The notes under the pieces are model-generated. The model did no database searches, was not told the origin of the DNA, and saw nothing but the letters and a program-made list of their open reading frames with translations. Positions 6,449-46,756 of a stretch of DNA of 64,000 bases are shown here, piece after piece. The position numbers and the translations under genes were made by a program. This DNA comes from Haliotis cracherodii (lineage: Eukaryota), in contig NW_027266330.1 of NCBI RefSeq assembly GCF_022045235.1, positions 40,796,001-40,860,000 on the forward strand. The letters are read 5' to 3'. Within the stretch, counting starts at the first letter, position 1. Each line of letters begins with the position of its first letter.

Positions 6449-6469
6449 CTAACAAAGCACCAGGTAATA

Positions 6470-8265: not shown

Positions 8266-8267
8266 CT

Positions 8268-15929: not shown

Positions 15930-15955
15930 CTGAAAGAAAACGATAGCCCGATTAT

Positions 15956-21580: not shown

Positions 21581-22415
21581 AAACGTTCTTGTGAATATCT
21601 GAATATACTCTCATCAGCAATTGCTCATAGTATTTACTTTAACATACTAGACCAAACATTGATCAGTAACCAGAGATTTTAGATATGTTTAGATATATCT
21701 GAACACTAGAACACACCTTTCATGTTACAGTTTTATTCTAATTTATGGTTACAGGTTACTGGTGCCAAACACCGGACGTTACCCCCCATCTGGCGCAGCT
21801 GACAATCTCTCACACAACATGGCTGTTGCAGGGGAATACAAACAGGAATTATGGATCCGGACCATATTTCAATTTCAATATTTCCATGGATTAAAAACTG
21901 CCAGTGCTACATATCCTCTATTACAGCGGTATTCAATTATTCCTGTGACTGGCCAATGCATGTGTCTGTATCATATTTGACGCTGTGTTCAATCAAACTA
22001 TAACTGGACCGATGCTGTCAATCAAGCTGCCAGAGGCAATATCGTGCATTTGATCACCATTTATGACGATACAATCTAGCTAATACAGTAATATTCTATT
22101 ACCATGGCAACACGAGGGAGACTGATGGCTCGTCAGTGATTACCTTGTTCTGCTGGCTTTATGGGGGCCCCTGAGGCTTTATGTAGCACCCCCCAGCTGG
22201 GTGTGCGGCGAATTGAGGAGGTAGAAGGCAGGGTGCGGAGTAAAGCTATATATGTACTCCCAAGGTACAGCTAGAGGCATACCTTGAAACGTGTTTTCGC
22301 CTTTACATAGACAATGATCCATGTAATAAATTCAGATTGTTCGGAAGGCCACATGCAGGATAGGAATGTCCATCTGTTTTCGATCACCTGCTGTGCCCAT
22401 ATGCCAAGCATAAAC

Positions 22416-22687
22416 TGAGTGAGTGAGTTGGTTTTAACGCCGCTTTTAACAGTATTCCAGTTATATCGCGGCCTGTCAGCTTAATGTGGGAGGAAAGTCC
22501 GAAGTGATGCAGGTCTTAGATATTTACCACTTCGGTGAAACTCACGAGCACGTGTATGGTGCTGACAAACCGAGAAACATAATCGGGGCGATCCTGGATT
22601 CGAACCCACAATCATAGGTTTCTGGCGTGCCTGAGGGACGCAACTCTGCACAGCGAATCGCGTCGCCTTAGACGACTGGGCCACCCG
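22416..22687 (-). mobile_element. tRNA-derived SINE family C
   Basis: B box GGTTCGAATCC, TTTCCTCCCAC body motif, same 3' tail and (ACTC)n end. Confidence 0.75.
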
Positions 22688-22704
22688 TTACCCCAATCGA
22701 AGGA

Positions 22705-23375
22705 CGGGGTGTACACTGTCTGTCTGAGACAGCACGTGGGACAGGGTGTACAGTGTGTGTCTGAGACACAGCAAGGGGGCCGGGGTGTACAGTGTGTGTC
22801 TGAGACAGTACGGGAGCCGGGGTGTACAGTGTGTGTCTGAGACAGTACGGGAGCCGGGGTGTACAGTATGTGTCTGAGACAGCACGGGGGACGCGGTGTA
22901 CAGTGTGTGTCTGAGACAGTACGGGAGCCGGGGCGAACAGTGTGTGTCGTGAGACAGCACGGGGGCCGGGGTGTACAGTGTGTGTCGTGAGACAGTACGG
23001 GGGCCGGGGCGAACAGTGTGTGTCTGAGACAGTACGGGGGCCGGGGCGAACAGTGTGTGTCGTGAGACAGTACGGGGGCCGGGGCGAACAGTGTGTGTCG
23101 TGAGACAGCACGGGGGCCGGGGTGTACAGTGTGTGTCTGAGACAGTACGGGGGCCGGGGTGTACAGTGTGTGTCGTGAGACAGTACGGGGGCCGGGGTGT
23201 ACAGTGTGTGTCTAAGACAGCACGGGGGACGGGGTGTACAGTGTCTGTCGTGCGACAGCACGGGGGCCGGGGTGTACAGTGTGTGTCGTGAGACAGCACG
23301 GGGGCCGGGGTGTACAGTGTGTGTCTGAGACAGTACGGGGGCCGGGGTGTGTGCTCTGGTGTACAGTGTGTGTCT
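22705..23375. repeat. GC-rich 38/40-bp minisatellite, ~17 copies
   Basis: GGGCCGGGGTGTACAGTGTGTGTCTGAGACAGTACGG. Confidence 0.93.
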
Positions 23376-25282
23376 GGAGGGCTTGGCGACTGTGTTGACA
23401 CTCGACACTTACATATTCAAGGCTTGTCTTATATTAAATACAGTGGTGGTGTGAATCGGTGAGAATTAACGGGATAAATGTTTTGATTTCACCTTTATGT
23501 GTGATTTATTGTATGTGGCTATTATGCAGTGGGACTGAATCAGCAGCATGTGGCGTTGCAGAATGTCTTCCCGAAGGAGTTCTCGATTGCCGGGTGTATG
23601 CAGGCGAGAGTGATCATCATAAGATGGGGAGGGGTGACGGTGGGGGATGTAAATGGGTTGATGATATCAATGGTTCATGCTCTGATAGTTAGTGATTAGA
23701 TATGCTTTGTTTGTAATTGACAGTTGCTGTTAACAATAAATTCCGGAAGGTATTAATGTATTAATGTATTAATGGCCTCAACTTGCCTTTTGTCAGCCGG
23801 CCCTGTGACTAAGCAGGGTGAGATAAAAGCACCCCTCTTCACTTCAAAGGGTTACATAAACATATATAGGTCTGTGGTGACACGTAGCCCTAGCCCCTCC
23901 CCCACCTCCACCACCACCCCGAGTAGCAGATAAGGTAGCTAGGGTCGTGTCAGGTGAGACGGGGGAACACTCGTCGTACATCACACTTACCCCACCTGCT
24001 TCAAATAACAATAATGTAACCGTGGTCGCACGGCCTTCACCCCGGGGCTAAACATATCACAATGTCGCCGTGAGTTGTTTCAATATGAAACCCCAGTGCA
24101 ACAAATTCAACTTTCATCGGTCGGAATTTTCCATCTCCGAACTTTCTGTTAACTAATTCAATGATAAGATTGCATTTGTCTGTGAGCTTGAAGACGATGA
24201 CGATGTGCCAGTGACATGCGAGCGGTAGATATACCGCCCCGTTGAGGGCGCGCTACCAATGCCGTCTTGTTGGAACGGTCATTAAATCCAGCTTCTGTAG
24301 CTTCTCATTGATGGCACATGACTCTTTTCATGAATCTGATAAACATGCAGATCGATTTCGAACCTATTTAGCGATACGTCAGTTCCCAAGGTGTTTGCTA
24401 TCCGATAACACTGCGTGAATAGACCTCATTTGCCACCAGAGTCTGTTACAAAGAAAGGTAGATAATCTGCTGTTTCCATACGCACACAGTTCGACCTTGG
24501 TCTCAAAGTACAGTGATGTGCAAATAATGGTCCAGGCTAGTAGTAGAAGTTGTGTGTGAATCGGTGCACAGCTTCAGTATAGACACTTTACGATGTGTAC
24601 TGAAACACTGCATACTTTGTGGAGTCATTGGACCTTCTCCTCCGCGCCCAAGTTGGTCTGAAGCTGACTCCAACAAGCCTGTATGATGTTCCAGGCTGTA
24701 TGTGCTCGGCATTCTGGTGGACCACAGCTGCACGGGGACAGGGACATGCTGCCTATAGTGTTCCAGTAAATCAGCAACCGGTTTGGGGTTTGTGTTAGGT
24801 TTCTGGACAAGCAAGATTATTCAGGTATAAATAATCCCGACAAGGAAATAGTACAAGAATAAAACATGGGTGTTCACTGGTCGGACGCAGGTCACATTCT
24901 TGGCCATGTGCCGGCTACACATGACACAGTCAAAACTCCAGAATATTTCATGGCCATGATGTAAGATAAACCATTTCTAGTCCACCTTTACCAGGCTGGT
25001 GTTACCTTGTCTCCATGCATGACAGCACAGGGAATCATTTACGAGCACCAATAACATAGTTAATGCAGTAAGCAATACATACACACTCTAGCTGGGAACA
25101 TGCTGGATGCCGGGTAGGTGACACGCCGCATAAAGAACGTCAAACATTAAACTTTAACGCTTTGCTAAGTCAAAAGGAAATGCCCAAATGTTCTTATCGT
25201 TGCCTGGGAAAGGGGGAGGGGTCGGTGGCGGGTAGCTCTAGGGTAGTTCACGAGGTACGGTGAACGGGTAGGTCTGACTCAC

Positions 25283-25338
25283 ATCCGTGTTTGCTCTTTA
25301 CATGCTTGTTCACATTGTGTGCAGCTCAATGTCGTCAT
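25283..25338 (-). CDS. Candidate alternative first coding exon of plakin gene (MTTLSCTQCEQACKEQTR)
   Basis: ATG, open frame, AT|gtgagt donor in phase 2, in frame with exon 19424-19511. Confidence 0.4.
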
Positions 25339-25836
25339 GTGAATGTCCAGAGGTAGTATACCCAGTTGTGGACACTATATGAATGGATTTACAGTTATGA
25401 TACAGTGGTGCCCCATTCTGTCAAATACATTCGCTGTCCGTGTCGATGTCTAATAACAATTCATCCCCGCATAGTTTGCATAGCACATAATATAAACTAA
25501 TGTAGATAAGGACTCGCATCGATACTAAGTGTATAGTCTGTCTGACGCATACATTTAAATAATGTCAAGTTGCAGTATTGACGCACACCGTATATTTGCT
25601 TAATCCATCGGCTAACAGAAGCCGGTGTAGAGGTGGGGCACCTAGCGGAGACCGGAATGTAATATAGATATAGACGCAATGACTTATGGCATGGACTTGA
25701 CGTGGATACAAACATGGATATCTTTTGACCTGATACAAACATAGATATATTTGTACCTGACCTGATACAAACATGGATATATTTGTACCTGACCTGATAC
25801 AAACATGGATATACATATGTATGTGGACTTGGCTTG

Positions 25837-25999
25837 NNNNNNNNNNNNNNNNNNNNNNNNNNNNNNNNNNNNNNNNNNNNNNNNNNNNNNNNNNNNNNNN
25901 NNNNNNNNNNNNNNNNNNNNNNNNNNNNNNNNNNNNNNNNNNNNNNNNNNNNNNNNNNNNNNNNNNNNNNNNNNNNNNNNNNNNNNNNNNNNNNNNNNN
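25837..25999. other. Assembly gap (N run)
   Basis: 163 n characters. Confidence 0.99.
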
Positions 26000-26157
26000 T
26001 CAATGCCAGAGAACAACCAGTCTCGATTATCCAACCAAAGCGATTCCATTGAGCGTAAAAGCCAAAATAGGGGGGGGGGGGGGGGGGGGGGTCAGTATAC
26101 GAAGTCATCACCTACAGTCAGCGATGAGAACAGTGGTGTTCGCGAAAAGGGTGAAAC

Positions 26158-26296
26158 GGGTATATATGACGTTGAATGGAACACAACATGGGTATATATG
26201 ACGTTGAATGGAACACAACATGGGTATATATGACGTTGAATGGAACACAACATGGGTACATATGACGTTGAATGGAACACAACATGGGTACATATG
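26158..26296. repeat. 32-bp tandem repeat, ~4 copies
   Basis: GGGTATATATGACGTTGAATGGAACACAACAT. Confidence 0.9.
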
Positions 26297-26711
26297 TCTG
26301 TCATAACAGTGGAGAAAAAGGTAAGAAGAAGTCATCACGTCTAGAGTAAACAGGCAAGCTGATGGAACGCTTTTATGGACAAAACTCTACCACCATTAAG
26401 AAGGAAGAGCTGTTCCATATTAATCTATACAGCGCATTATTTTTATCTCAAAACGTGATTTCTGTAACAGAGGGTTATTGATGTACAAAGGGAATGATTT
26501 CCAATATTTCCAATATGAACTTACCCACAGTTACAGAATTACGTAGTTGAAGATGATACAGCTGCATGCAGAGTGTTGGGACCCAGGTGCACACAAGCTA
26601 TGCCCGGTCACAAATTAAACACATACTGTTTGTTTAAGGCAGTTGTAACAATTACAAAGCAGTGGAGTTATCTCCGCGAGGTGTGTTTCAGATACATAGA
26701 GAAGGTCCTAC

Positions 26712-26835
26712 CTGTGCTGTCCTGTGTGGTGTGTAGTACCCAGCTCACGGTTGTGTGGAGATGCGCGTTGTGCCGTATGTGCCGTGTAGTGTGTGACCAG
26801 TGAAGCCCGACTCCCACACCGCTAGCCCCGCCCCT
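26712..26835 (-). promoter_or_regulatory. Candidate alternative promoter (GC box) and non-coding exon
   Basis: GGGGCGGGGC at ~26826-26835, CAG|gtagga donor at 26711. Confidence 0.25.
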
Positions 26836-28077
26836 CGCGGAGACTCTCCCGGACGTTCGTACAAACCCTCCCATCACTCTTACATAACTGACAGGAACAA
26901 AATTACCAAACAAGGGCAAATAGGCAGTCGGAAATTGAAAAGTTGATCAAAATCACATTTGTTAATAAAAAGACCACATGGTATATGTATGGTCACTGGT
27001 TAAACTTTGTAAGTTGTGAAGTTTCTATATATAACTGAATGAAAAGAAGCTAGTCGACATAGTTAGTGGGAACAGGATATCGCTGTGACATTTATGAAAA
27101 TGACATATATAGTTGCCTGTACCGGGGAGCAGCTCAAGAGCGGGGAGGGGGATTAAAGCACAGGTCCTACAGGTTACTAGCTCTGTGGCCCGGGACACAT
27201 AGACTTCAGTCAATTCCTGTCCTGCCACCCAAACAGCTGGACAACGGTGGGGCTTGTATTGGTGATCGCTTTTATCAAATCTCCCATACAGTGTAAAGGT
27301 TTATAGCTGACTTAATGTAAAGATAGCCCTCATTTAGAGTGGCAGACTGGTGTCAGTGCGGTGTGTAGTATTGTTTATCATCTCAGACTACCTGTGGTCT
27401 ATGTGAGTAGTGAACGTGCAGGTGTATTCAGGTAATATGTAGCGTCTGTTCCATCGTTTCCACGGGCAGTGGTCCATGTTAAAACTTCTGTGGAAGCTGT
27501 TAGATGTGTATTCGATTTACTATGCGGGTGGAAATCACGCTAACCTCAGTGATAAATGTTGACTTAATAAATCGTATGTTGGGTTACAATAATATCAATC
27601 ACAATATCGTTGGCAAAATGGACCATGAGTTTGGAGGAAACTTGATCCAGTCAAAGGTTTTAAATCATAGAGACCTGTCTCTGAATAACATAGTCGACTA
27701 CAAGGACACGCTGTTCTGCATTTGACTTTTCTCATACCACATGATGTCCTGTGCAACTTCCGTGCAGCAAATATATTGCCCCAAATTAGTTCTGATCGTA
27801 TGTTTATGATTGTAAAATTCAGACAACTCTATATGTCAGTTTTATTTCTCCCAAACGGCCATATATGTTATTGTTTCTTATCCGTGAAGAGATCACCTGT
27901 ATAATAAACATACAGCTGTATTACACATTATGGAATACCAAAGCGCGTAAGCATAAGCGCTTATGTACTGCTGGAACAAGTTCCACTGACGACAATTGAA
28001 ACTCTCAGCATCTCTTGGCGTATTGAGTGATTGTCACCTTTGTGATGCAAGGTCCCGTTCCACAAGGCGATCGTGAA

Positions 28078-28187
28078 ACTCGTGAAAGGTTCTGGTATCT
28101 GACTCGCTTTCACTCGTCAAATACCAGAACTATTCAGTGGTTTCATAAATTTGGTACTAAACGGGAGCTCGTTTAGTATTCTATATT
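28078..28187. mobile_element. Partial copy of MITE 52571-52726
   Basis: Shared CTGACTCGCTTTC...ACGGGAGCTCGTTT.GTATTCTATATT. Confidence 0.7.
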
Positions 28188-28459
28188 TATCCTCTGTACC
28201 GAAATGTTGTCAGTAATGATGTCAGCTTATACGGATAAGGTAAAAAAGAGATCACGGTACCAGATGTGTAAGGAATCGAAATTCTGACTGGACAAAAGTT
28301 TAGATCATTTGCCATTGACCATGATGTAGATTTACAAACACGTTCTAAAGTTTAATTATATACATACTTTGGATAAGATAGAAAAAGAAATGAAAATATT
28401 ATCGAATTGTTTGATATGCATTACTTAGAAGTTGACGGATGACAAAGTAGACACAGTTT

Positions 28460-29090
28460 ATGGATAACAACTTCTTTCATACTGTAAAGGCGACGTTTCG
28501 GTACAAATCCTTATACCGTTGTCAAGCAAGACTGAATGAAGGACATTGTACAGAATATATATAGTAGGTGGAGGATGAACAGTAGAGGATTAATAGTAAC
28601 AACAATAGCAAATATGAGTGGGTTAACAAGGGTAAGTAATGACAACGGAAGGATAATACTGTCACAACAAGAGGGACAGAGAACCCATGGGTGGAAGCCA
28701 ATGGGACATGAAGCCAATTAAACAGGATGAGCTTGTATAGGTCTAGTGAGTTCATAGTAGGCGGATGGGGTGAAATAGCCTCGATCTGTGGACTAATGTG
28801 GACTACTTTTGTTAGTTTTCTTTTAGTGAAATCATGGAGGTTGTTGGTGAGGATTTGGACGTTGTCCCAGTTGATGTTTTGATTAGGACAGTTGCTGATA
28901 TGGTCCGAGATGACTGATTTGCTGTCTGATATGATGGTTGAGGTTTTGTGCTCTTTGATTCTGGTGTTGATGGGGCGAGATGTTTCACCTACCTAAGACT
29001 GACCGCAGTTGCAGTCAATTATATAAACTACACCTTTAGGCTCTGGGGGTTTGGTTGTGTTCCTGCCGTTGGCTCTTAGTAGGGTAGGGT
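28460..29090 (-). mobile_element. 5'-truncated Penelope-like element relic (GIY-YIG endonuclease pseudogene plus 3' region)
   Basis: Minus-strand translation PKGVVYIIDCNCGQS*VGETSRPINTRIKEHK...SDH...INWDNVQIL; stop replaces the Tyr of YVG. Confidence 0.85.
28488..28530 (-). ncRNA. Minimal hammerhead-ribozyme-like motif (U3-A8 variant) at the PLE 3' end
   Basis: GC-TTGACAA-C-GGTATAA ggat TTGTACC-GAAAC-GTC-GC. Confidence 0.6.
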
Positions 29091-31577
29091 ACTTTGAAAA
29101 TATTATCAATGAGACCTTTAACACATAAAGGCAGAAATGGTGTACTAGAATATTTATCATTACCCAAACTTAATCATATTTTCTGTAGTATTCTTCGTCC
29201 AAGAAAGGAAAGAATAAATACTAATGAGTTGCTGCCGTTTCATTTGGCGAAATAACACAGATAAAACTTTTTGGAAACGTCATGGCATTACAATTTCAGT
29301 CTCAGTACCTGTGCTTGACATATTTCATGTACAGACATTGACGTGGATTGAAAGACTTTTGTGTCTTTTATGTTTAATGTCAATCATATTTGCCCTGCAT
29401 TGTCATTGTTAGTGAAAATAGTGTTCCAGTTAGTGAAAATAGTGTTCCAGTTAGTGAAAATAGTGTTCCAAACTAATAAAAATGTCGTTTTGGAAAGAAA
29501 AAATTATGATATTTTTCCCCCTGAAAAATGTCAAACACAAACTTAACGGAAAGGGAGATATGCTGAGTCAATCTGTGCAGGATGTTAGCAAGATAACATT
29601 TCTCATTGAATTTCTACTTGAATGTTCCAGCTTTCTGACAGAAAGATAGTACTATCTCAACTGTTATTACTATTTAAAGCCTAAGTATTATGAATTACAA
29701 CAGTTATTCTCAAGTAAAAGGATATCTGTGTTAAGGGGGCTGTGTAAAACAATACAATGTACTTATTCACACTTCTGATGTATATCTACCGCCTACTTAT
29801 ACGCAATAAAAATACTGGCATATTCCATGTAACCCTGTGTGGTGTATCATCACAATAAAGAAGAGTTTGGTATCAAAATGATTGTAGAGAAGAGTCTGTA
29901 GTATGTTTCAATTCCAAGAAGTTAGACAGAAACGTCGCGTGAATACAAGTTTCCTTATCTATCAAGATATATAAGATAGCTACGCGATAAATCGCAAAGA
30001 TCAGTTAAGAACGAAGCGTGGTTTATTTCTCGATAAAACATTGTCCTATCATAAAGGTCGTTTCTGGAGATTCGAACACAACTTGATGACGTCATATATT
30101 GAATGACGTTATTTTTGAGAGGGGAGTGCCTGGTGAGGTCTCCCCTGTAGATGTAACTGGGCAACGCAGATAAACGTAGTGGCTTAACGATCGCATCCAA
30201 GGGTGGTAGAGATACCACAATTGGTATTGGGAGAAAAGGTACGGATAGTCGATGTAAGGATTGTGCGAAAATGCGGGCAATACCAAGCTTATCCCACATG
30301 TTCATTAAATGGTCTTATCCGACATTGCCGAGGTCGGATTCTATTCAGGGAGTCATCATTATTTAACTATTAAAGCTTGTACATTTTAATAACATCCTTA
30401 AAGTTACTGTAGAAAATGTTGATATTTCATGAAAGAAATAAACGACTCTTACCTAAAGCCTACAATAAATGATAATAAAACCAATTATGGTATTCCAAGT
30501 ATGCGGAAAGATATGGAAGGAAATTGAAAATCTCTCAAATTGGAAATTTGACGGAAAGGACACTTGATTTTGTTGTGATTTAAAGGTAAAAATAACAATC
30601 AGCTTAATGCAGTAACTATGGTAACAAAACAAATAAATTACAAATCTAACTGAAAAAAATCAAAACACCATTTCATTAATATTACGAAAGGAACAATCAA
30701 ATACTATGAAATTATATACAAGACCTATTATCTGTTCCAATTGTAGTTTTGCTAGCTTCCACGCTTTCTGGTCGTCCTTCAAAACTTTAAATTTATCACT
30801 AATGTTATGAAGATATATCAGCGATATAAGAACAATATTTAAATTTGCTTTTGTTTCACATGGATGTGTTTAAAACATTGACATAAAGGGTATATCATTT
30901 TTAGTTGTTTCCTAGTTAGAAGAGAACGTCCTTTCCTTACTGATCAGACGGGACTGACATACATTCAACATGCCCATATTACTTGGAAACAAATCGTTGC
31001 CTCAACATATTGAAAACATGACGGAATTGATACTATAACAAAGATATCGATATGATGACAACACCAGCTGTTGAGAACCTGTTTGTCCTTCGTCATAGAA
31101 TGTGAACCTGCTGTTAAAGTAAACCTATTGTTTTTTTTGTAATCTTTGACACGTTGGAGGGGAGATGCGCGATCGGTTCTAAATGCAGTTTATTTAGCGC
31201 CGCCAAATTAATATAGGAAGTGGAACTTTCGCTAATCCCTGGATTAAAATTAAACATATACTGCCTTTAAAACGACTGGCATGTTCACAGAAAGTATGTA
31301 TCACGTAGAACGGTCAGGCATGCTGAGCGTACCTATGTGTGGTGCTGTCTGTGACGGGTGTGTGGTGGAAGTGTGTTATCGGTTTCCGACACGTACTGTG
31401 TGGTCTGGTTTGTTCGGTTTGTTCTGAGTGTTGAGATGACTTTATCATAAAAGAAATTCATCAATTAGCAGACGGGGGTTTGATTGAGTGGGATTATATA
31501 AGCGGGATGAGTTTAAACAAGCACGCAGAAAACTTTCTGTATGTTACTGGTGCAATTCTTGATTGTAGAAATAAAAA

Positions 31578-34500
31578 TGAATGTGTGTTTTATATTCCAT
31601 ATCTGAAAGTGTGTTTTATATATACATATCTGAATGTGTGTTTTATATTTCCATATCTGAATGTGTGTTTTATATTTCCATATTTGAATGTGTGTTTTAT
31701 ATTTCCATATCTGAATGTGTTTTATATTTCCATATCTGAATGCTTGTGTTTCATATTTCCATGTCTGCATGTGTGTTTCATATTTCCATATCTGATTGTG
31801 TTTTATATTTCCATATCTAAATGTGTGTTTTATATTTCCATATCTGAATGTCTTTTATATTTCCATATCTGAATGCTTGTGTTTTATATTTCCATATCTG
31901 AATGCTTATGTTTCATATTTCCATATCTGAATGTGTGTTTCATATTTCCATATCTGATTGTGTTTTATATTTTCATATCTGAATGTGTTTTATATTTCCA
32001 TATCTGAATGTGTGTTTTGTATTTCCATATCTGAATGTGTGTTTTATATATTTCAAGATCTGAATGTGTTTTATATTTCCATATCTGAATGTGTTTTATA
32101 TTTCAAGATCTGAATGTTTGTGTTCTATATTTCCATATCTGAATGCTTGTGTTTTATTTTTTCATATCTGAAAATGTGTTTTATTTTTCCATGTCTGAAT
32201 GTTTGTGTTTTATATTTCCAGATCTGAGTGTTTGTGTTCTATATTTCCATATCTGAATGCTTGTGTTTTATATTTCCTTATCTGAATGTGTTTTATAAAT
32301 CCATATCTGAATGTGTTTAATATTTCCATACCTGAATGTTTGTGTTTGATATTTCCATGTCTGAATGCTTGAGTTTTATATTTCCTTATCTGAATGTGTT
32401 TTATAAATCCATATCTGAATGTGTTTAATATTTCCATACCTGAATGTTTGTGTTTGATATTTCCATATCTGAATGCTTGTGTTTTATATGTCCTTATCTG
32501 AATGTGTTTTATAAATCCATATCTGAATGTGTTTAATATTTCCATACCTGAATGTTTGTGTTTGATATTTCCATGTCTGAATGCTTGAGTTTTATATTTC
32601 CTTATCTGAATGTGTTTTATAAATCCATATCTGAATGTGTTTAATATTTCCATACCTGAATGTTTGTGTTTGATATTTCCATATCTGAATGCTTGTGTTT
32701 TATATTTCCTTATCTGAATGTGTTTTATAAATCCATATCTGAATGTGTTTAATATTTCCATACCTGAATGTTTGTGTTTGATATTTCCATATCTGAATAT
32801 TTGTCTTTAATATTTCCACATCCGAATGTTTGTGTTTAATATTTCCATATCTGAATGTTGGTGTTTAATATTTCCACATCCGAATGTTGGTGTTTAATAT
32901 TTCCACATCCGAATGTTTGTGTTTAAAATTTCCATATCTGAATGTTTGTGTTTAACATTTCCATATCTGTATGTTGTTGTTTAATATTTCCACATCTGAA
33001 TCTTTGTCTTTAATATTTCCACATCTGAATGTTTTTGTTTAATACTTCCATATCTGAATGTTGGTGTTTCACATTTCCATATCTGAATGTTTGTGTTCCA
33101 CATTTCCATATCTGAATATTGGTGTTTAATATTTCCATATCTGAATGTTGGTGTTTAATATTTCCATATCTGAATGTTGGTGTTTAATATTTCCATATCT
33201 GAATGTGTTTGATATTTCCATATCTAAATGTTTGAGTTCTACATTTCCACATCTGAATGTTGGTGTTTAATATTTCCATATCTGAATGTTGGTGTTTAAT
33301 ATTTCCATATCTGAATGTTGGTGTTTAATATTTTCATATCTGAATGTGTTTTATATTTCCATATCTGAATGTGTGTTTTGTATTTCCATATCTGAATGTG
33401 TGTTTTATATATTTCAAGATCTGAATGTGTTTTATATTTCAAGATCTGAATGTGTTTTATATTTCAAGATCTGAATGTTTGTGTTCTATATTTCCATATC
33501 TGAATGCTTGTGTTTTATTTTTTCATATCTGAAAATGTGTTTTATTTTTCCATGTCTGAATGTTTGTGTTTTATATTTCCAGATCTGAGTGTTTGTGTTC
33601 TATATTTCCATATCTGAATGCTTGTGTTTTATATTTCCTTATCTGAATGTGTTTTATAAATCCATATCTGAATGTGTTTAATATTTCCATACCTGAATGT
33701 TTGTGTTTGATATTTCCATGTCTGAATGCTTGAGTTTTATATTTCCTTATCTGAATGTGTTTTATAAATCCATATCTGAATGTGTTTAATATTTCCATAC
33801 CTGAATGTTTGTGTTTGATATTTCCATATCTGAATGCTTGTGTTTTATATTTCCTTATCTGAATGTGTTTTATAAATCCATATCTGAATGTGTTTAATAT
33901 TTCCATACCTGAATGTTTGTGTTTGATATTTCCATGTCTGAATGCTTGAGTTTTATATTTCCTTATCTGAATGTGTTTTATAAATCCATATCTGAATGTG
34001 TTTAATATTTCCATACCTGAATGTTTGTGTTTGATATTTCCATATCTGAATGCTTGTGTTTTATATTTCCTTATCTGAATGTGTTTTATAAATCCATATC
34101 TGAATGTGTTTAATATTTCCATACCTGAATGTTTGTGTTTGATATTTCCATATCTGAATATTTGTCTTTAATATTTCCACATCCGAATGTTTGTGTTTAA
34201 TATTTCCATATCTGAATGTTGGTGTTTAATATTTCCACATCCGAATGTTGGTGTTTAATATTTCCACATCCGAATGTTTGTGTTTAAAATTTCCATATCT
34301 GAATGTTTGTGTTTAACATTTCCATATCTGTATGTTGTTGTTTAATATTTCCACATCTGAATCTTTGTCTTTAATATTTCCACATCTGAATGTTTGTGTT
34401 TAATACTTCCATATCTGAATGTGTTTCACATTTCCATATCTGAATGTTTGTGTTCCACATTTCCATATCTGAATATTGGTGTTTAATATTTCCATATCTG

Positions 34501-35790
34501 AATGTTGGTGTTTAATATTTCCATATCTGAATGTTGGTGTTTAATATTTCCATATCTGAATGTGTTTGATATTTCCATATCTAAATGTTTGAGTTCTACA
34601 TTTCCACATCTGAATGTTGGTGTTTAATATTTCCATATCTGAATGTGTTTGATATTTCCATATCTAAATGTTTGAGTTCTACATTTCCACATCTGAATGT
34701 TGGTGTTTAATACTTCCATATCTGAAGGTTGGTGTTTAATATTTCCACATCTGAATGTTTGTGTTTAGAATTTCCATATCTGAATGTTGGTGTTAAACAT
34801 TTCCATATCCGTATGTTGTTGTTTAATATTTCCACATCTGAATGTTTGTCTTTAATATTTCCACATCTGAATGTTTGTCTTTAATATTTCCACATCTGAA
34901 TGTTTTTGTTTAATACTTCCATATCTGAATGTTGATGTTTCACATTTCCATATCTGAATGTTTGTATTTCACATTTCCATATCTGAATATTGGTGTTTAA
35001 TATTTCCATATCTGAATGTTGGTGTTTAATATTTCTATATCTGAATGTTGGTGTTTAATATTTCCATATCCGAATGTGTTTGATATTTCCATATCTAAAT
35101 GTTTGAGTTCTACATTTCCACATCTGAATGTTGGTGTTTAATATTTCCATATCTGAATGTTGGTGTTTAATATTTCCATATCTGAATGTTGGTGTTAAAT
35201 ATTTCCATATCTGAATGTGTTTGATATTTCCATATCTAAATGTTTGAGTTCTACATTTCCATATCTGAATATTGGTGTTTAATATTTCCATATCTGAATG
35301 TTGGTGTTTAATATTTCCATATCCGAATGTGTTTGATATTTCCATATCTAAATGTTTGAGTTCTACATTTCCATATCTGAATATTGGTGTTTAATATTTC
35401 CATATCTGAATGTTGGTGTTTAATATTTCCATATCTGAATGTTGGTGTTAAATATTTCCATATCTGAATGTGTTTGATATTTCCATATCTAAATGTTTGA
35501 GTTCTACATTTCCACATCTGAATGTTGGTGTTTAATATATCCATATCTGAATGTTGGTGTTTAATATTTCCATATCTGAATGATGGTGTTTAATATTTCC
35601 ATATCTGAATGTTGGTGTTACATACTGTGGTAGTAGAATGTTTGTGTTTTATATTTCCAGATTGGAATGTGTTTCATATTCATATCTTCAGATTATAATG
35701 TTTTGTTTTTTCCACATCTGAATGTTTGTGTTTAAAATTGTAATAGCAGAATGTTTGTGTTGCATATCGTTATAGCAAAATGTTTGTCTT
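31578..35790. repeat. AT-rich 25-29-bp satellite with higher-order duplication
   Basis: TTTCCATATCTGAATGT core; near-identical ORFs 32210.. and 33571.. are 1361 bp apart. Confidence 0.95.
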
Positions 35791-36317
35791 TTATTTCCAT
35801 AGTCAAATTTTACCATAGTGTTTTAAATTTCTGTACATGACTAATAGTGTTTTGTATTTCTGTCCATGACTAATAGTGTTTCACATTTCAGAAATCTGAT
35901 TAAAAATTCAGACATGCTTGGTGGGATTGCCCCAGGCTGATGAGCCACCGTATGTTTGTGACGTTGGAAAATCTGTGGACTATTGATGTCTGTCACATAA
36001 GTCACACTTTCACAGTCGCTCGTCGCAGTTGTCTCCCTTCAACTATTAGAAAAACTGTCTGAAGAAAAACACTTTTATATGTAAACACAGAGACCATATA
36101 ACGGTACATGGTCTCCTGTAAACATCAACCACAAGTGACATGAGCTGAGGTCGATCGTCACCATGTGATACTCTCCTAGTGACTTGCATACAACGCCAGA
36201 CTTGACGGGATGTGTTATTGATTGATGCAGTGGCTGATGGGGGTGGGTGTCACGTTCTACTGGGTATGCTACTGAAGTTGGTGTGGGGAGTGAGTGGGAT
36301 GGGGGGAGTGTTCTTAC

Positions 36318-36398
36318 CTGGTGGCGGTACTCGGCACAGTCCAACAGGTAGTTGGCCAGGTCACGAAAGTAGAACCAGATGAGAGCGGCTGTCAGCAT
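36318..36398 (-). CDS. Candidate alternative first coding exon of plakin gene (MLTAALIWFYFRDLANYLLDCAEYRHQ)
   Basis: Kozak-like accaccATG, CAG|gtaaga donor, phase 0; in frame with exon 15873-15929 only if 19424-19511 is skipped. Confidence 0.5.
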
Positions 36399-38794
36399 GG
36401 TGGTAGGTCTGTGTCCTGCGTCTGACCACTCCTCGCCGTGCAGGTGGAGTATCGGGTGCTGGCGAGATCAGCACTGGGGATTTGAGTGGGTGGTGAAAGG
36501 ATCACCACCGTACAGACATTTCTCCTCTCACTAGATACTGTGCCTCCGTAAAACAACTCGAAACGAAATATGGGTCAGGTCGCAACACAGTATCTGTCCC
36601 CTTCAAAGCATTGTTGTAAACACTCAAACACTTTCCGAGGTGGGGAGAGAGTCCGTACTAGTCAAGTGTAGAGTCCGGGACACGCTTTGGACAGTTCGAA
36701 ATTACAATGACTATGCACTCAAAGAAAACTGTGTATCCACAAGGTCACTGAGTAGAACACATGCCTACGCGGCCATGACACATGCATGACTTGCTGTCGT
36801 TCCGGCTGGGCGGATGGACTTAATACGTGGAATATTAAGTATCCAGGGGCAATGCCTAGGGTTACTCGGCACCCTAGTCCGGCCCAGGTCTGTCAGGGGG
36901 GGTTAGTCGGGTCCAGGGTGGGTTCACGTCTCCACGCACACAACGTTTGTCCGTCACTATGGCAGACAAAGTGATACACCTGCTGTTGATGGTGATGATC
37001 AATAACTGGGAGAGATAATTACTGTGTGTAGATAGAGATAGACCAGAGGGTGGGTGGAAGTTCTTACATGTCAGCTGCTTACAGGACACAGAGCTGTTCC
37101 AGAATTAAACTCGGATATATTGCGGAAGCGCGAAGGTTAACGTTTAGAGGATTATCTTGTCATTGTCCAGACACAGGGAAATGAAATACAGAATAACTCA
37201 CAGCCGATAAGGATATGGATAAAAACCATGTATAAATTAATATGAAACAGTTACAGGTTGATGACGTGACGTGGTATGACGTGTGGCGGGTGTGGTGCGA
37301 CAAGGGCCTGACACTTCACGTGTGGTACACTGGTAACATTCTGATGCTGGATTTATAGCTTGGGTACAAAGTTGAGTAATACCTAAACCCCGGTATTATA
37401 AGTACAATAAAAGAAGGTACTTGTAAATCATCTATTTACAAGGATAAGCCCACATAAAATAAGCCTCTTTTCACTAAGCCATTATATTACGCCGAAGGCG
37501 TCGATATCACTTGAAACTTCTGTAAGTGAAGTTTAACACTTATTGTCAGACCAGCACTGGGGGAATGTAGCCTTATAGGTATTCGTTTTATACGTGGACG
37601 CGTGCAACCATCTACATGTCTGACCTAGCCTTGACATATTGTAGACATGATTGATGGCCCTGCAACAGACTGCACCGTTATATGTGGAAACACAAAGCTG
37701 CTGCGTTAAGCTGATGCCATTCAATGCCACTTTGTTTACAGGCAGCTGCTATTTAACGAATTTTATTCTGTGTGCAACAGTGCTAAGTGTTGCGCGTGGA
37801 TAGGAGATCAATGTGTCACAGCCAGGCCCAGCAGCTAGTTAAGGATGGGTTCCACTTGACTGGGGACGGCAATAGATTCCTTGAACAGTTCTTACGATTA
37901 CAAAGAGTTACCATTGATCGTTTCTCTGATAGCTCAGTAAGATGTCCACACTATCTCATACATGTTCTAACCTTGCCAGTCAGCTAGGTACATTATAAGA
38001 CCCATGGCCTTCCTCGTGACGAGTGACTAGACTAACCCACCGCATCAACTCTTTGATAATGCTGTCATTATCTACGTATCACTAGAACCAAGGAGAAGAG
38101 GGAGTGGGCAGTAACTGGATCTACCGCTGTGAGAGGCGATGAACAGCAGCCTCTTCATACAGAATCCCTGCCTGAATATCAACTATGACACAAGATAGCA
38201 ACCGGTAGAGCAGGTCGGGCTCGACATGCGAATGTCATCATTGTCATGTCAGATATCCCATTTACTTTCATCTCTGTTACACAATGTTGTGAATTCAACA
38301 AGAATAGATTTTGTTCATCTAAAACTTACCCAATTGTAGACATAAAATGTACGCAGTAGACATTTGAACTTTCAAAAAGCATATAATGCCATTGTTTACA
38401 TAGTATGACGGAATGAATGGCTGTATGTCTACCTGTAACAGATAGATACCTCTAGCAACCACTCTACACTAGACCACGGATGCAGTCATATGTTAATTAA
38501 AGTATCAGCAGTTGACATCAAGTGCTGGGCATATCAATATCAGGCACAGGGCGTAATGTCAGTCCTGGTGTTCGGTGTATATGCAACACCTCCGTATTGA
38601 TTACAAACACTTCACTTATGTCGTCACGGCATAGGTACACAGGTATAAGGAGTGAAAAACTTCTGATCCAATCTGTTCAAATATTGGCAAAACAAGTACA
38701 ATTTCAAGCTCATAATTTTTATGTAAAATCGAAGATCGTCATCTTTTGAATTGAAATTTTATCTAAGCTATCTTGTTCTGTCACTAAACGCACG

Positions 38795-39069
38795 TGTGGT
38801 TGTGTGTGTGCGTGTGTGTGTGTTAGTGTGTGTGAGTGTGTAGGTAGATGTGTGTGTGTGTGTGAGTGTGCAGGTAGGTGTGTGAATGTGTAGGTAGATG
38901 TGTGTGTGTGTGTGTAGGTAGGTGTGTGAGTGTGTAGGTAGATGTGTGTGTGTGTGAGTGTGTAGGTAGATGTGTGTGTGTGTGTGAGTGTGTAGGTAGA
39001 TGTGTGAATGTGTAGGTAGATGTGTGTGTGTGTGTGAGTGTGTAGGTAGATGTGTGAATGTGTAGGTAG

Positions 39070-39133
<64 letters not shown>

Positions 39134-39256
39134 GTAGATGTGTGAGTGTGTAGTAGATGTGTGTGTTTGTCCGGTAGTGTGATGTCTTCAGGGGAAACGT
39201 GACACTATCAGCTCAGCGAATGATTGAGTGAGTGAGTGAGTGAGTGAGTGAGTGAG
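38795..39256. repeat. Compound (GT)n / GTAG microsatellite followed by (GAGT)n
   Basis: Direct inspection. Confidence 0.95.
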
Positions 39257-39679
39257 GTGCAACATCGGTTTTGTTATGTCAATATGTCAGCAACATTACA
39301 GCTAAAAGCACAAATCATGGGTTTACACATTGCACCATGTATGTATGTATGTATGGCATCAAACTAAGATGTTCCATGTGACACACGTCTCCAGCAACTG
39401 ACTGCCACAGGATGCAACGACATACCGCTCATATATAAGCCTGACAATTTGTCTACCATCTATTCTTGATAACTTGATCTATGTTTAAATATTTATTAGT
39501 TCCAGATATTAAATACTTGAATCTGCATTTAACTTAACACACATTTCTTAGTGTCATTTTCCACATTAACCTTTTAAAACTAACATTAATTAACTAATCA
39601 TTCCTAGCAAACAAAGTCTACCTAAAAATGAAACACAGTGCGTGATGTCAGTGGTACAACATGATGACTTGTAGACAGC

Positions 39680-40610
39680 ACAAAACATGACATTGTTCAT
39701 CCCGTACTAGACAGTGTACAAAACAACCATGACATCGTTCATCCCGTACTAGACAGTGTAGAAAACAATCATCAAATTGTTCATCCCGTACTAGACATTG
39801 TACAAAACAAACATGACATTGTTCATCCCGTACTAGACAGTGTACAAAACAACCATGACATTGTTCATCCCGTACTAGACAGTGTACAAAACAACCATGC
39901 CATTGTTCATCCCGTACTAGACATTGTACAAAACAACCATGACATTGTTCATCCCGTACTAGACAGTGTACAAAACAACCATGACATTGTTCATCCCGTA
40001 CTAGACATTGTACAAAACAACCATGACATTGTTCATCCCGTACTAGACAGTGTACAAAACAACCATGACATTGTTCATCCCGTACTAGACAGTGTAGGAA
40101 ACAACCATGACATTGTTCATCCCGTACTAGACAGTGTACAAAACAACCATGACATTGTTCATCCCGTACTTGGCAGTGTAGAAAACAACCATGACATTGT
40201 TCATCCCGTACTAGACAGTGTACAAAACAACCATGACATTGTTCATCCCGTACTAGACAGTGTAGAAAACAACCATGACATTGTTCATCCCGTACTAGAC
40301 AATGTACAAAACAAACATGACATTGTTCATCCCGTACTAGACAATGTACAAAACAACCATGACATTGTTCATCCCGTACTAGACAGTGTACAAAACAACC
40401 ATGACATTGTTCATCCCGTACTAGACAATGTACAAAACAAACATGACATTGTTCATCCCGCACTAGACATTGTACAAAACAACCATGACATTGTTCATCG
40501 CGTACCAGACAGTGTAGAAAACAACCATGACATTGTTCATCCCGTACCAGACAGTGTAGAAAACAACCATGACATTGTTCACCCCGTACTAGACAGTGTA
40601 GAAAACAAAC
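39680..40610. repeat. 42-bp minisatellite, ~22 copies
   Basis: TAGACAGTGTACAAAACAACCATGACATTGTTCATCCCGTAC. Confidence 0.95.
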
Positions 40611-40785
40611 AGGCTACCATGTCGCCTGATGAAACTACAGTTTGGAATGTGAAGTTTAATGCTAAGATTCTCGTTATTTGGTCGTTGTAGTATCAACTGT
40701 ACGAACATAGCCCTAAAGTTTTGTACAACTGATCGGGTGCACCAGTGATGTAGTCATCACTTTTCACTGCTAAAATGCATGGATC

Positions 40786-43157
40786 GTCAATATCAAGGTA
40801 GTTTCATGACACAACTGCGGGGATAGTCAATACAAAGGTAGTTTTATGACACAAGTGCAGGGGTAGTCAATACAAAGGTAGTTTTATGACACAAGTGCAG
40901 GGATAGTCAATACAAAGGTAGTTTCATGACACAACTGCAGGGATAGTCAATACAAAGGTAGTTTCATGACACATCTGCAGGGACAGTCAATACCAGGGTA
41001 GTTTCATGACCCAACTGCAGGGACAGTCAATACCAGGTTAGTTTCATGACCTAACTGCAGGGACAGTCAATACCAGGGTAGTTTCATGACACAAAGGCAG
41101 GGATAGTTAATACCAGGGCAGTTTCATGACACAACTGCAGGGACAGTCAATGCCAGAGTAGTTTTATGACACACCTGCAGGGGTAGTCAATACCAGGGTA
41201 GTTTCATGACACAACTGCAGGGACAGTCAATACCAGGGTTGTTTCATGACACACCTGCAGGGATAGTTAATGCCAGGGTAGTTTCCTGACACAACTGCAG
41301 GGGTAGTCAATACCAGGGTAGTTTCATGACACAACTGCAGGGACAGTCAATACCAGGGTTGTTTCATGACACAAAGGCAGGGATAGTCAATACCAGGGTA
41401 GTTGCATGACAAAACTGCGGGGACAGTCAATACCAGGGTAGTTTCATGACACAACTGCAGGGATAGTCAATACCAGTGTTGTTTCATGACACAACGGCAG
41501 GGATAGTCAATACAAAGGTAGTTTCATGACACAATTGCTGGGGTAGTCAATATCAGGGTAGTTTCATGACACAAAGGCAGGGATAGTCAATACCAGGGTA
41601 GTTGCATGACACAACTGCGGGGACAGTCAATGCCAGAGTAGTTTTATGACACACCTGCAGGGGTAGTCAATACCAGGGTAGTTTCATGACACAACTGCAG
41701 GGACAGTCAATACCAGGGTTGTTTCATGACACAAAGGCAGGGATAGTCAATACCAGGGTAGTTGCATGACACAACTGCGGGGACAGTCAATACCAGGGTA
41801 GTTTCATGACACAACTGCAGGGATAGTCAATACCAGGGTTGTTTCATGACACAACGGCAGGGATAGTCAATACAAAGGTAGTTTCATGACACAATTGCTG
41901 GGGTAGTCAATATCAGGGTAGTTTCATGACACACCTGCAGGGGTAGTCGATACCAGGGTAGTTTCATGACACAACTGCAGGGACAGTCAATACCAGGGTT
42001 GTTTCATGACACACCTGCAGGGGTAGTCAATACAAAGGAAGTTTCATGACACAACTGCAGGGACAGTCAATGCCAGAGTAGTTTTATGACACACCTGCAG
42101 GGGTAGTCAATACCAGGGTAGTTTCATGACCCAACTGCAGGGACAGTCAATATCAGGGTAGTTTCATGACACAACTGCAGGGGTAGTCAATACAAAGGTA
42201 GTTTCATGACACACATGCAGGGACAGTCAATACCAGGGTAGTTTCATGACACAACTGCAGGGACAGTCAATATCAGGGTAGTTTCATGAGAAACCTGCAG
42301 GGGTAGTCAATACCAGGGAAAGTTCATGACCCAACTGCAGGGGTAGTCAATACCAGGGTAGTTTCATGACCCAACTGCAGGGGTAGTCAATACCAGGGTA
42401 GTTTCATGAGCCAACTGCAGGGGTAGTCAATACCAGGGTAGTTTCATGACACAACTGCAGGGGTAGTCAATACCAGGGTAGTTTCATGAGCCAACTGCAG
42501 GGGTAGTCAATACCAGGGTAGTTTCATGACCTAACTGCAGGGACAGTCAATACCAGGGTAGTTTCATGACACAACTGCAGGGACAGTCAATACCAGGGTA
42601 GTTTCATGACACAACTGCAGGGGTAGTCAATACAAAAGACGTTTCCTGACACAACTGCAGGGACAGTCAATACCAGGGTAGTTTCATGACACAACTGCAG
42701 GGACAGTCAATACCAGGGTAGTTTCCTGACACAACTGCAGGGGTAGTCAATACAAAGGAAGTTTCCTGACACAACTGCAGGGACAGTCAATACCAGGGTA
42801 GTTTCATGACACAACTGCAGGGACAGTCAATACCAGGGTAGTTTCCTGACACAACTGCAGGGACAGTCAATACCAGGGTAGTTTCATGACCCAACTGCAG
42901 GGACAGTCAATACCAGGGTAGTTTCCTGACACAACTGCAGGGGTAGTCAATACCAGGGTAGTTTCATGACCCAACTGCAGGGACAGTCAATACCAGGGTA
43001 GTTTCATGACACAACTGCAGGGACAGTCAATACCAGGGTAGTTTCCTGACACAACTGCAGGGGTAGTCAATATCAGGGAAGGTTCATGACACAACTGCAG
43101 GGGTAGTCAATACCAGGGTAGTTTCATGAAACACCTGCAGGGGTAGTCAATACAAAG
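40786..43157. repeat. 40-bp minisatellite, ~59 copies
   Basis: GTCAATACCAGGGTAGTTTCATGACACAACTGCAGGGACA. Confidence 0.97.
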
Positions 43158-44539
43158 TTAGATGGTAGAAACTGCGATTTCAGCCTACCCACCCTTTACT
43201 ATTAACATTATCAACAAATTTACCTCGATCAGAGATTTAGCACAGTTGTGAAAATATTGCTATGGAATAGACCGCCAGTTTCATGTCGACATGCTTTTTT
43301 CGACGTGATGGAGCCTGAATCTGATAGAAGGACATGAACATGTCTCTACGGGTGGTTTAAAGGTAAAGGTAAAGTATATTTTAAAAAATAATTTGCTCAT
43401 TTCATTGCACCTGGCTGGAATTGCAATCGCCAGTTTAGTGTTGTATCGATGGCAACTATTGATATTCCTTCCGACAATGGACAACTGCAGCTCGGCGATA
43501 TGGCTGGATACATCATGCATTACATCCCTAGTTTCCACACAGTGTGTGTCAAATCAAAATGACTGCTAAGCTTAAAACCTGCGCGGAAGCAACAGTTACT
43601 GTTATATTAGGTTCAGCTTCTTAGACACTGTGCTTTCTGAAATTATGATTGTGTTTGCAACGGAAAAAGCCCTATGGCATTTATATAAGATCACAGGATC
43701 CTACTTTTTAAATGAACTAAAGAACAAGTTTTCAGGGTGTGTTCGCCAACTGATCAATACATTAGGAAAGAGAATTTATGGATGTCAACTTCTTTATTAT
43801 AAGGAACACAACGTTTCGGAGAATATGATAACTCAATCAGGTGAATCAACGCTAGGATGCATAGATTATTGGATTACATATTGTTTTCAGCTCCAACTGC
43901 AAAACCAGATATTTTTAATTAAAACTATGAGCCTGAATATTCTTAAAGAAAAACTCCATCTAACAATGTCAATTTTGTGTCAGATAATTTCTCCATTTGT
44001 TTTCATCAGTCTGAAGCATAATAAAAAAAAATCAAGAATTTGGGGGAACAATGTACCCCAGTAGAACAGGAAACAGTTGAAGGGCTGGAGCTTCATGTGC
44101 AAGATGTTGAGTTACATCAATATGTGCTTTATTATACATGAACATGTTCCCATAACGAGGGAATATATATGATGGATATTGTCATCAAGTCTGTCGCCTT
44201 ATCGGAATGATGAATGCCTGAACCCAGTTATCACTGACAGTAATGTTTGTGTCTCTGGTCAGAGTGTTTGGGTAATCATGCATCCATGCTTGTCGGGCCT
44301 ACGACTAAATGTGGATTGGGTGGGTGCCGCGTGAGACTGACGGCGTGAATCTTTGAGAACAGTAAAGACGACGGGTTTGCCCTGTTCAGACATTGTGTGC
44401 CTTCACTGATGCCTTGTTCATCCTTACAAACAGTTCTACAATCTACCACTGGCACTTGTTCAGTTCGTGGTTCGCGGTTCGTGTAGACATATTAGGGGAC
44501 GGTGTACTGTTAATGAATTTCATGATCGTGGTGTATGAT

Positions 44540-44719
44540 ATGAGTGAGTGAGTGAGTGAGTGAGTGAGTATAGTTTTACGCCGCTTTTAGCAATATTCCA
44601 GCAATATCACGGCGGGGGACACCAGAAATGGGCTTCACACATTGTACCCATGTCGGGAATCGAACCCGGGTCTTCGGCGTGACGAACGTACGCTTTAACC
44701 ACTAGGCTACCTGACCGCC
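44540..44719 (-). mobile_element. tRNA-derived SINE family B
   Basis: A box TAGCCTAGTGG, B box GGTTCGATTCC, 3' tail shared with family A, (ACTC)n end; second copy at 50609-50766. Confidence 0.9.
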
Positions 44720-44883
44720 TATGACGATATGAACATATGAAGAGTTGAATGTGGATTCATTATGACACAGGTCATTCAGCCACCATAGTATTACTAGTAG
44801 GCAAAACTCCACCATAGTCTTGGCAGGTGTAGCTCAGACCTGTTTTACTGTATCAGTTCTCTAAGGTCTTCCCTAGCTGTACG

Positions 44884-46120
44884 CAACAGTCTTACCTCGA
44901 CGCTATCTATAGTTATTACCGAGGTGCACTCAACAGTCTTACCTCGACGCTATCTATAGTTATTACCGTGGTGCACTCAACAGTCTTACCTCGACGCTAT
45001 CTATAGTTATTACCGTGGTGCACTCAACAGTCTTACCTCGACGCTATCTATAGTTATTACCGTGGTGCACTCAACAGTCTTACCTCGACGCTATCTATAG
45101 TTATTACCGTGGTGCACTCAACAGCCTTACCTCGACGCTATCTATAGTTATTACCGTGGTGCACTCAACAGTCTTACCTCGACGCTATCTATAGTTATTA
45201 CCGTGGTGCACTCAACAGTCTTACCTCGACGCTATCTATAGTTATTACCGTGGTGCACTCAACAGTCTTACCTCGACGCTATCTATAGTTATTACCGTGG
45301 TGCACTCAACAGTCTTACCTCGACGCTATCTATAGTTATTACCGTGGTGCACTCAACAGTCTTACCTCGACGCTATCTATAGTTATTACCGTGGTGCACT
45401 CAACAGTCTTACCTCGACGCTATCTATAGTTATTACCGTGGTGCACTCAACAGTCTTACCTCGACGCTATCTATAGTTATTACCGTGGTGCACTCAACAG
45501 CCTTACCTCGACGCTATCTATAGTTATTACCGTGGTGCACTCAACAGTCTTACCTCGACGCTATCTATAGTTATTACCGTGGTGCACTCAACAGTCTTAC
45601 CTCGACGCTATCTATAGTTATTACCGTGGTGCACTCAACAGCCTTACCTCGACGCTATCTATAGTTATTACCGTGGTGCACTCAACAGCCTTACCTCGAC
45701 GCTATCTATAGTTATTACCGTGGTGCACTCAACAGCCTTACCTCGACGCTATCTATAGTTATTACCGTGGTGCACTCAACAGTCTTACCTCGACGCTATC
45801 TATAGTTATTACCGTGGTGCACTCAACAGTCTTACCTCGACGCTATCTATAGTTATTACCGTGGTGCACTCAACAGTCTTACCTCGACGCTATCTATAGT
45901 TATTACCGTGGTGCACTCAACAGTCTTACCTCGACGCTATCTATAGTTATTACCGTGGTGCACTCAACAGTCTTACCTCGACGCTATCTATAGTTATTAC
46001 CGTGGTGCACTCAACAGCCTTACCTCGACGCTATCTATAGTTATTTCCGTGGTGCACTCAACAGTCTTACCTCGACGCTATCTATAGTTATTACCGTGGT
46101 GCACTCAACAGTCTTACCTC
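44884..46120. repeat. 47-bp highly homogeneous array, ~26 copies, containing a minus-strand splice donor
   Basis: CAACAGTCTTACCTCGACGCTATCTATAGTTATTACCGTGGTGCACT; minus strand reads GAG|GTAAGACTGTTG. Confidence 0.96.
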
Positions 46121-46140
46121 AGTGTTGATGTAGAAGTCAT
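46118..46140 (-). CDS. Coding part (MTSTSTL) of 25-nt candidate start micro-exon 46118-46142 of plakin gene
   Basis: tgtgtgtcAG acceptor, GAG|gtaaga donor, phase 2, in frame with exon 19424-19511; donor amplified in the adjacent 47-bp array. Confidence 0.55.
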
Positions 46141-46184
46141 ATCTGACACACACGTTGTCCGGCGCCCCCATCATAAACGTCCCT

Positions 46185-46660
46185 TGTGGATACAGTGTTG
46201 TCACGTCCAGGTGGATAAAGTGATGTCACGTCCAGGTGGATACAATGATACACGTCCTGGTGGATAAAGTGATGTCACGTCCTGGTGGATACAGTGATGT
46301 CAAGTCGTGGTGGATACAGCGATGTCACGTCCAGGTGGATACAGCAATGTCACGTCCTGGTGGATACAGCGATGTTACGTGACGGTGGATACTGTGATGT
46401 CACGTCCTGGTGGATACAGCGATGTTACGTGACGGTTGATACAGTGATGTCACGTCCTGGTGGATACAGCGATGTTACGTGACGGTTGATACAGTGATGC
46501 CACGTCCTGGTGGATACAGCGATGTCACGTCCTGGTGGATACAGCGATGTCACGTGATGGTTGATACAGTAATGTCACGTCCAGGTGGATACAGCGATGT
46601 CACGTCCAGGTGGATACAGCGATGTCACGTCCAGGCGTATACAGTGATGTAGCGTCCAGT
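46185..46660. repeat. 25-bp minisatellite, ~19 copies
   Basis: GGTGGATACAGCGATGTCACGTCCT. Confidence 0.92.
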
Positions 46661-46666
46661 ACTCAC

Positions 46667-46756
46667 GTACACCTGATCACCACACGATGTAACCAATCTT
46701 CGTTATACGGCTAATATATTCCCCTGTTCGATTTGTTATTATCATGCTAAAACTGA
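46667..46756 (-). promoter_or_regulatory. Candidate TSS (Inr TCAGTT, ~46754) and non-coding first exon of plakin gene
   Basis: ATTCAGTT initiator-like motif; AC|gtgagt donor at 46666; lies upstream of the micro-exon; contains a 22-codon uORF. Confidence 0.4.

Follow-up and report, generated by a model that had tools for sequence, protein, structure and literature searches.

Minisatellites that reiterate the boundary between exon and intron were described earlier in human genes. According to the accessible part of one report (PMC1557585), the 37-bp VNTR unit of F7 IVS7 spanned the boundary of exon 7, and only the most upstream of the identical donors was used, though the others were functional. 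The same part described boundary-type arrays in intron 2 of 6-16 (25 pseudo-sites), CBS IVS13, LMNB2 and PDGF intron 4; of these human genes, 6-16 and CBS also made use of the two pseudo-sites closest by. In amphioxus, the "mirages" of Adh3 and of the globin genes BflGb6 and BflGb9 were presented, in the available part of PMC3087553, as tandem duplications of an exon-intron boundary.

We analysed a stretch of 64,000 nucleotides from Haliotis cracherodii (hereafter the window) that carried a 47-bp array at the end of a plakin first exon, here called exon A. With a probability of about 0.9, this array was a locus-born intronic minisatellite repeating the 5' splice site of an annotated plakin first exon, with the first copy likely taken and the 26 decoys ignored. 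The features of the array and of exon A were as follows.

44884..46120, minus strand: 47-bp minisatellite, 26.3 copies, 99% match.
44852..44883, minus strand: diverged stub past the last 47-bp unit, which it resembles at 11 of 19 letters, p ~0.002 (20-nt test).
46116..46120, minus strand: real 5' splice site GAG/GT in the first array unit; exon end 46118, phase 0; seen in runs X1 and X4 and in RefSeq isoforms.
46118..46174, minus strand: exon A coding part; 19 codons from 46174, 18 from 46171; four RefSeq isoforms.
46175..46710, minus strand: exon A 5' UTR; joined to the coding part without a break as far as 46260, with RNA cover resuming at 46649-46678.
46177..46657, minus strand: 25-bp minisatellite, 19.2 copies, 82% match, ATG-free.
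15930..46117, minus strand: first intron of the exon A isoform, 30,188 nt; contains first exons B and C.

Each 47-bp unit consisted of GAG, the last three exon nucleotides, followed by the first 44 intron nucleotides, and ATG was absent from it. The 26 full units differed from their consensus at 8 of 1,222 nucleotides, and the differences were confined to three unit positions. We counted 27 GAG/GTAAG sites at the array, namely the real donor after 46118 and 26 repeat copies. The earlier note on this DNA had stated that the unit bears a GAG/GTAAGA donor on the minus strand; this held for 20 of the 26 decoys, while the other six read GTAAGG, a change common to the scattered units 3, 9, 10, 11, 14 and 22. 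Unit 1 was identical to the consensus, and the real donor and the 20 decoys were identical from position -3 onward, all with 8 of 11 matches to the U1 consensus. Thus, donor strength did not decide between these sites, and position probably did. When the 28-nt core of the unit was searched in the 1.18-Gb genome with one mismatch allowed, all 26 matches fell in this array, and the reversed control gave 0 matches genome-wide (1.18 Gb). By this search the unit was born at the locus rather than being a dispersed repeat.

Sequence just past the last unit (20-30 nt) was still similar to the unit (p 0.001-0.013 over three lengths, against a background of 5,000 random pieces of the window), while the exon end beyond GAG did not, so the array may predate its apparent uniformity. 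Accordingly, the earlier reading of a nearly homogeneous, recently expanded array was borne out as to homogeneity, but the diverged stub suggested recent homogenisation of a possibly older array. Assembly polishing may overstate the homogeneity of the 47-bp array, which is known here from one assembly. Separately, we found no support for a candidate stretch of ~17 nt of decayed exon sequence inside the unit, as the likeness of the exon end beyond GAG was not significant (p 0.13-0.45).

The host gene was a short plakin on the minus strand. Exon 7228-7374, used as a query, retrieved 18 clustered Haliotis proteins and a further cluster from Patella. In XP_071086149.1, the SH3_10 domain (PF17902, E 5.6e-18) and plectin repeats (PF00681, E 4.2e-24) scored above the curated cut-offs, and no hit to an actin-binding domain was obtained in this 817-aa protein. 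All 817 of its 817 residues were identical to this genome, in 18 segments (window and flank). The remaining features of the gene were as follows.

15873..15929, minus strand: shared second exon, RKMAKSE..., entered from each of exons A, B and C; in-frame ATG at 15923.
36318..36398, minus strand: coding part of first exon B, MLTAALIWFYF...; from annotation, no reads aligned.
18385..18901, minus strand: first exon C, spliced to 15929 in a contig; likely 5' UTR here.
462..12278, minus strand: 15 further coding exons of this plakin, whose domains are SH3_10 and plectin repeats; the final coding exon falls immediately beyond the window.

An internal micro-exon of 21 nt was also observed at 4716-4696 (window 4693-4716), from which the few-residue length differences between pairs of RefSeq isoforms possibly arise. 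A plus-strand gene, weakly matching ankyrin, occupied ~53100-64000 and faced the plakin head to head; arrays at 57810-59136 and from 63696 onward began at or near apparent donors, and the array at 61803-63568 ended at an apparent acceptor. A tRNA-like dispersed repeat, by eye probably a SINE, was present in two minus-strand copies at 44720-44600 and 50760-50630.

The earlier note had placed a hidden 25-nt start micro-exon here; exon A, however, already has a RefSeq annotation in four Haliotis species. Its N-terminus was present in one isoform each of H. cracherodii (X3, XP_071086149.1), H. rufescens (X3), H. asinina (X3) and H. rubra (X4) among the 15 isoforms listed of 18, the other accessions being XP_046337997.2, XP_067668866.1 and XP_046577888.1. 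Exon, frame and junction were the same in these four records as here, and the arrays are invisible in protein records. The isoforms began with (M)MGAPDNVCVRYDFYIN[T/S]E followed by RKMAKSE, which corresponded to 46174-46118 joined directly to exon 15929-15873, and the frame of exon A was that of MGAPDNVC. The ATG at 46171, with A at -3 and G at +4, was a start common to all four species and the annotated start of the H. rubra and H. asinina isoforms.

Transcript evidence for 46108-46260 came from a search of four runs from three studies. The runs carry no RNA label on record, and splicing was read solely from exact exon-to-exon joins; since an exact GT/AG join spanned 30 kb, runs X1 and X4 did yield spliced material. 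In run X1 (organism A, study P1), a contig of depth 3.7 equalled 46260-46118 with 0 differences in 143 nt, and in run X4 (organism B, study P2) a contig of depth 2141 matched 46228-46118; X4 came from another organism, ~3% different in introns. Both contigs crossed 46142 without a joint and stopped matching at 46118. Their loose ends comprised 11 and 255 letters, of which the shown 11 and 30 were the start of exon 15929. Thus, both of the two spliced contigs used the most upstream donor, and no cover was found on the intron side at 46108-46113 in the four runs. Runs X2 and X7 had no cover on 46118-46179, and these blanks were not counted as absence. Rare variants are lost from assembled contigs, and contig depth reflects level poorly; therefore, low-level use of decoys, or rare inclusion of the segment 19424-19511 considered below, was possible.

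Upstream, another X4 contig (depth 135) had a loose end whose 30 shown letters matched 46649-46678 and which by its length would extend to ~46710. A donor proposed earlier at 46667 was therefore read through unspliced. Exon A was at least 143 nt long and probably ~590 nt or more, 46710 being the extent of this contig rather than a mapped start. The proximal units of the 25-bp array were exonic, in the 5' UTR, and the remaining units probably belonged to the same UTR. Look-alikes of this array were weak (69-77%) and lay on three other contigs. Several of its units contained the acceptor-like motif CCACCAG/G, none of which was seen in use in transcript contigs; a minor isoform with an intron inside the 25-bp array was possible. 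Short contigs of runs X7 and X2 on this array (mostly 90-95% alike) were left out because they may represent other units or loci.

On the tested features, the 47-bp array belonged to the boundary-reiterating minisatellites of F7, 6-16, CBS, LMNB2, PDGF and the amphioxus mirages: its first unit spanned the boundary, the donor was repeated, the unit was locus-born, and the upstream donor was used (rare use being invisible in contigs). As in the accessible description of F7 IVS7, the first unit took few letters from the exon (4+33 in F7, 3+44 in abalone), copies of the donor followed within the intron, and splicing took the most upstream site, in abalone in 2 of 2 contigs that were spliced. With 26 pseudo-sites, the abalone array came close to the 25 given for 6-16 in the same available text. 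Unlike the F7-type arrays, the abalone array followed a first exon and headed a 30-kb intron. As the available part of PMC3087553 describes them, the amphioxus mirages shared with it an invertebrate host, a duplicated boundary, preserved normal splicing and a homogenised interior with diverged ends. However, the exonic share of the abalone unit was just 3 nt, so that it cannot easily seed a new exon. A literature search for junction minisatellites in Haliotis or abalone found no report, which is weak evidence given its incomplete coverage.

A putative course of events can be proposed for this array. It would have started from tandem duplication of the exon A junction (3 exon and 44 intron nucleotides) and would have grown and been homogenised via slippage or unequal exchange. 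Reasoning from F7 IVS7, splicing would choose the most upstream of the identical donors, probably co-transcriptionally; since 6-16 and CBS also use the two nearest pseudo-sites, "only the first" donor may overstate the case. If splicing leaked to any decoy, the frame would end 8 codons into the array. Counted from 46171, a splice to any decoy would meet a stop at codon 26, so that an upstream ORF of 26 codons would precede MAKSE. Such RNA would be degraded, or would re-initiate at MAKSE to give the short isoform listed in RefSeq. Since leak would lead to decay or to a start that annotated isoforms already use, its cost was probably small and the array was probably nearly neutral.

At least three alternative first exons fed 15929, those ending at 46118 and 18385 by contigs and that at 36318 by RefSeq proteins. 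Among the 15 isoforms listed of 18, four began with exon A, six with MLTAALIWFYF, two with an H. rubra head and three with MAKSE. Exon C was spliced from 18901-18385 to 15929 in a contig of run X4 (depth 21; four runs on 16570-20025), and runs X1 and X2 gave nothing on 16570-20025, blanks that were not counted as absence. The 73-residue head of H. rubra isoforms X1 and X2 mapped to 18616-18385 and was frame-shifted in this genome; thus, the annotated head was probably 5' UTR here. Exon B encoded a hydrophobic head of 27 residues (11-residue hydropathy 1.85), conserved in Haliotis, Patella and Gigantopelta (local score 83-105 in the latter two), and was a possible membrane anchor. For the exon A peptide, no counterpart outside Haliotis turned up among the 159 proteins scored (highest local score 25), and its Met-Gly at 46171 was present in 4 of 4 species carrying the exon, in a strong start context. 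The exon A head presumably fits the loose PROSITE myristoylation pattern, but it contains Pro-Asp and has no Ser at position 6.

Since several first exons entered one common exon, the gene made N-terminal variants, like plectin. For plectin, variable first exons are described in the available part of PMC8391331; the abalone first exons likewise spliced to one common second exon and gave short distinct heads. In the accessible part of PMC3352950, BPAG1a1, a2 and a3 are N-terminal variants, a2 having a transmembrane head and a3 a myristoylation head; the hydrophobic head B and the Met-Gly head A of abalone might be compared with these two as a resemblance of sequence only. In contrast to plectin and BPAG1, the abalone protein was short (817 aa), with SH3_10 and plectin repeats and without an actin-binding domain hit.

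Two further segments had been named as exons in the earlier note:

46118..46142, minus strand: proposed micro-exon; in fact the 3' terminus of exon A, with an ATG at 46140 that is out of the plakin frame.
19424..19511, minus strand: proposed second exon; good AG/GT flanks, no spliced support.

The segment 19424-19511 might be a cassette (poison) exon that is rarely included, or might belong to the 5' UTR of transcripts from another start site near 19657; on either view it would have nothing to do with the array. Its AG/GT flanks and a strong donor-like site upstream at 19657 agreed with this, and its inclusion after exon A would bring a stop, which in the true frame came after 11 codons. However, none of the four runs gave a contig spliced at this segment; it was covered by unspliced contigs in two of them (X4, 19335-19713; X8, 19310-19553; depths 4.67 and 2.2), at the depth of neighbouring intron contigs. 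We therefore regarded such an exon as rather unlikely.

Could the array instead act as a functional, length-variable switch, in which the nearest decoys turn exon A into an uORF and shift output to the MAKSE isoform or to decay according to copy number? The decoys identical to the real donor, the stop at codon 26 in an ATG-free unit and the existence of MAKSE-start isoforms were compatible with this, as was the use of the nearest pseudo-sites in human 6-16 and CBS, in the accessible part of PMC1557585. On the other hand, no contig entering the array from exon A was seen in the four runs, and a first exon without coding sequence, such as C, already accounted for the MAKSE isoforms. Such a switch was therefore improbable, and we retained the reading of a repeated splice site with ignored decoys.

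Other arrays in this gene also lay beside splice junctions. In the introns of the XP_071086149.1 isoform, 7 of 18 arrays were within 30 nt of a junction (≤30 nt) against 2.2 expected (p 0.00025) when each array was placed at random in its own intron; at thresholds of 0, 10 and 70 nt, the counts were 3, 4 and 7 (p 0.034, 0.016 and 0.0017). The test covered one gene at four thresholds with two adjacent arrays merged, and the array under study had been picked for its junction position (6 of 17 without it). Given one gene, several thresholds and a preselected array, the excess was a lead only. It would be a long shot to propose that splice junctions are the preferred birthplace of minisatellites in abalone introns and that the 26 decoys of exon A form a copy-number dial, diverting transcripts from a Met-Gly, possibly lipid-anchored plakin to a uORF form that yields the headless isoform.

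A second donor-containing array of this gene (9646-10741, minus strand; 42 bp x 26) repeated the donor GAG/GTCAGT and overlapped the end of exon 10819-10724 by ~18 nt. Two more arrays ended at acceptors: the 55-bp unit of the array at 649-875 (minus strand) repeated the acceptor of exon 648-462, and the array at 8268-8909 (minus strand), with a 46-bp unit, ended 2 nt short of exon 8265's acceptor.

The model of the earlier note was a 25-nt start micro-exon (46142-46118, MTSTSTL) fed from 46667 and spliced to 19511-19424 and then to 15929. The letters at 46142-46118 were as written, with AG, ATG and GT in place, and the three-piece join (46118, 19511-19424, 15929-15873) did give an open frame through a second exon with good flanks. 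Three AG..ATG..GT[AG]AG pieces with an open frame and phase 2 occurred on the minus strand of 19512-53000, so this pattern was uncommon but not unique. Of the reasoning that the array reveals a plakin exon, the part that survived was that the array begins at a real, used 5' splice site, while the 5' boundary, frame, start and partner assigned to the exon were wrong. The partner was 15929 across 30,188 nt in contigs of two studies, not 19511 across 26.6 kb, and the joins from 46667 to 46142, from 46118 to 19511 and from 19424 to 15929 were not seen; contigs ran unspliced through 46667 and 46142. The supposed acceptor AG at 46143-46144 was crossed unspliced by two contigs and followed a tract of 40% pyrimidine, compared with 65% at 15929. 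RefSeq isoforms used another frame than MTSTSTL; once 46118 joins 15929, the ATG at 46140 is out of frame, and its frame ends in that next exon. Read-through to a decoy met TAA at once, as had been claimed, in the MTSTSTL frame, but after 8 codons in the true one. With two studies' contigs unspliced over 46142 and joined from 46118 to 15929, one contig unspliced across 46667, 19424-19511 covered unspliced only, two upstream ATGs in another frame, MTSTSTL or the 19424-19511 peptide in 0 of the 15 Haliotis isoforms listed of 18, and, as weak evidence, one protein hit among 7 candidates for the 19424-19612 frame, itself an unspliced read-through ORF past the supposed donor, this model was largely refuted as the main isoform and hardly credible otherwise.

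As it stands, the finding that the array repeats the splice site of exon A matters little, because RefSeq already holds the exon, and arrays of this type are known from humans and amphioxus; what is new here is another example of a known repeat type, after an annotated first exon. In practice, a donor-bearing array serves well to find a real splice site and is silent on exon length, frame and partner. With donors identical to the real one, the locus provides a natural setting in an invertebrate for testing whether donors are chosen first come. Moreover, the excess of arrays at junctions, if genome-wide, would point to a link between splicing or transcription and minisatellite birth.
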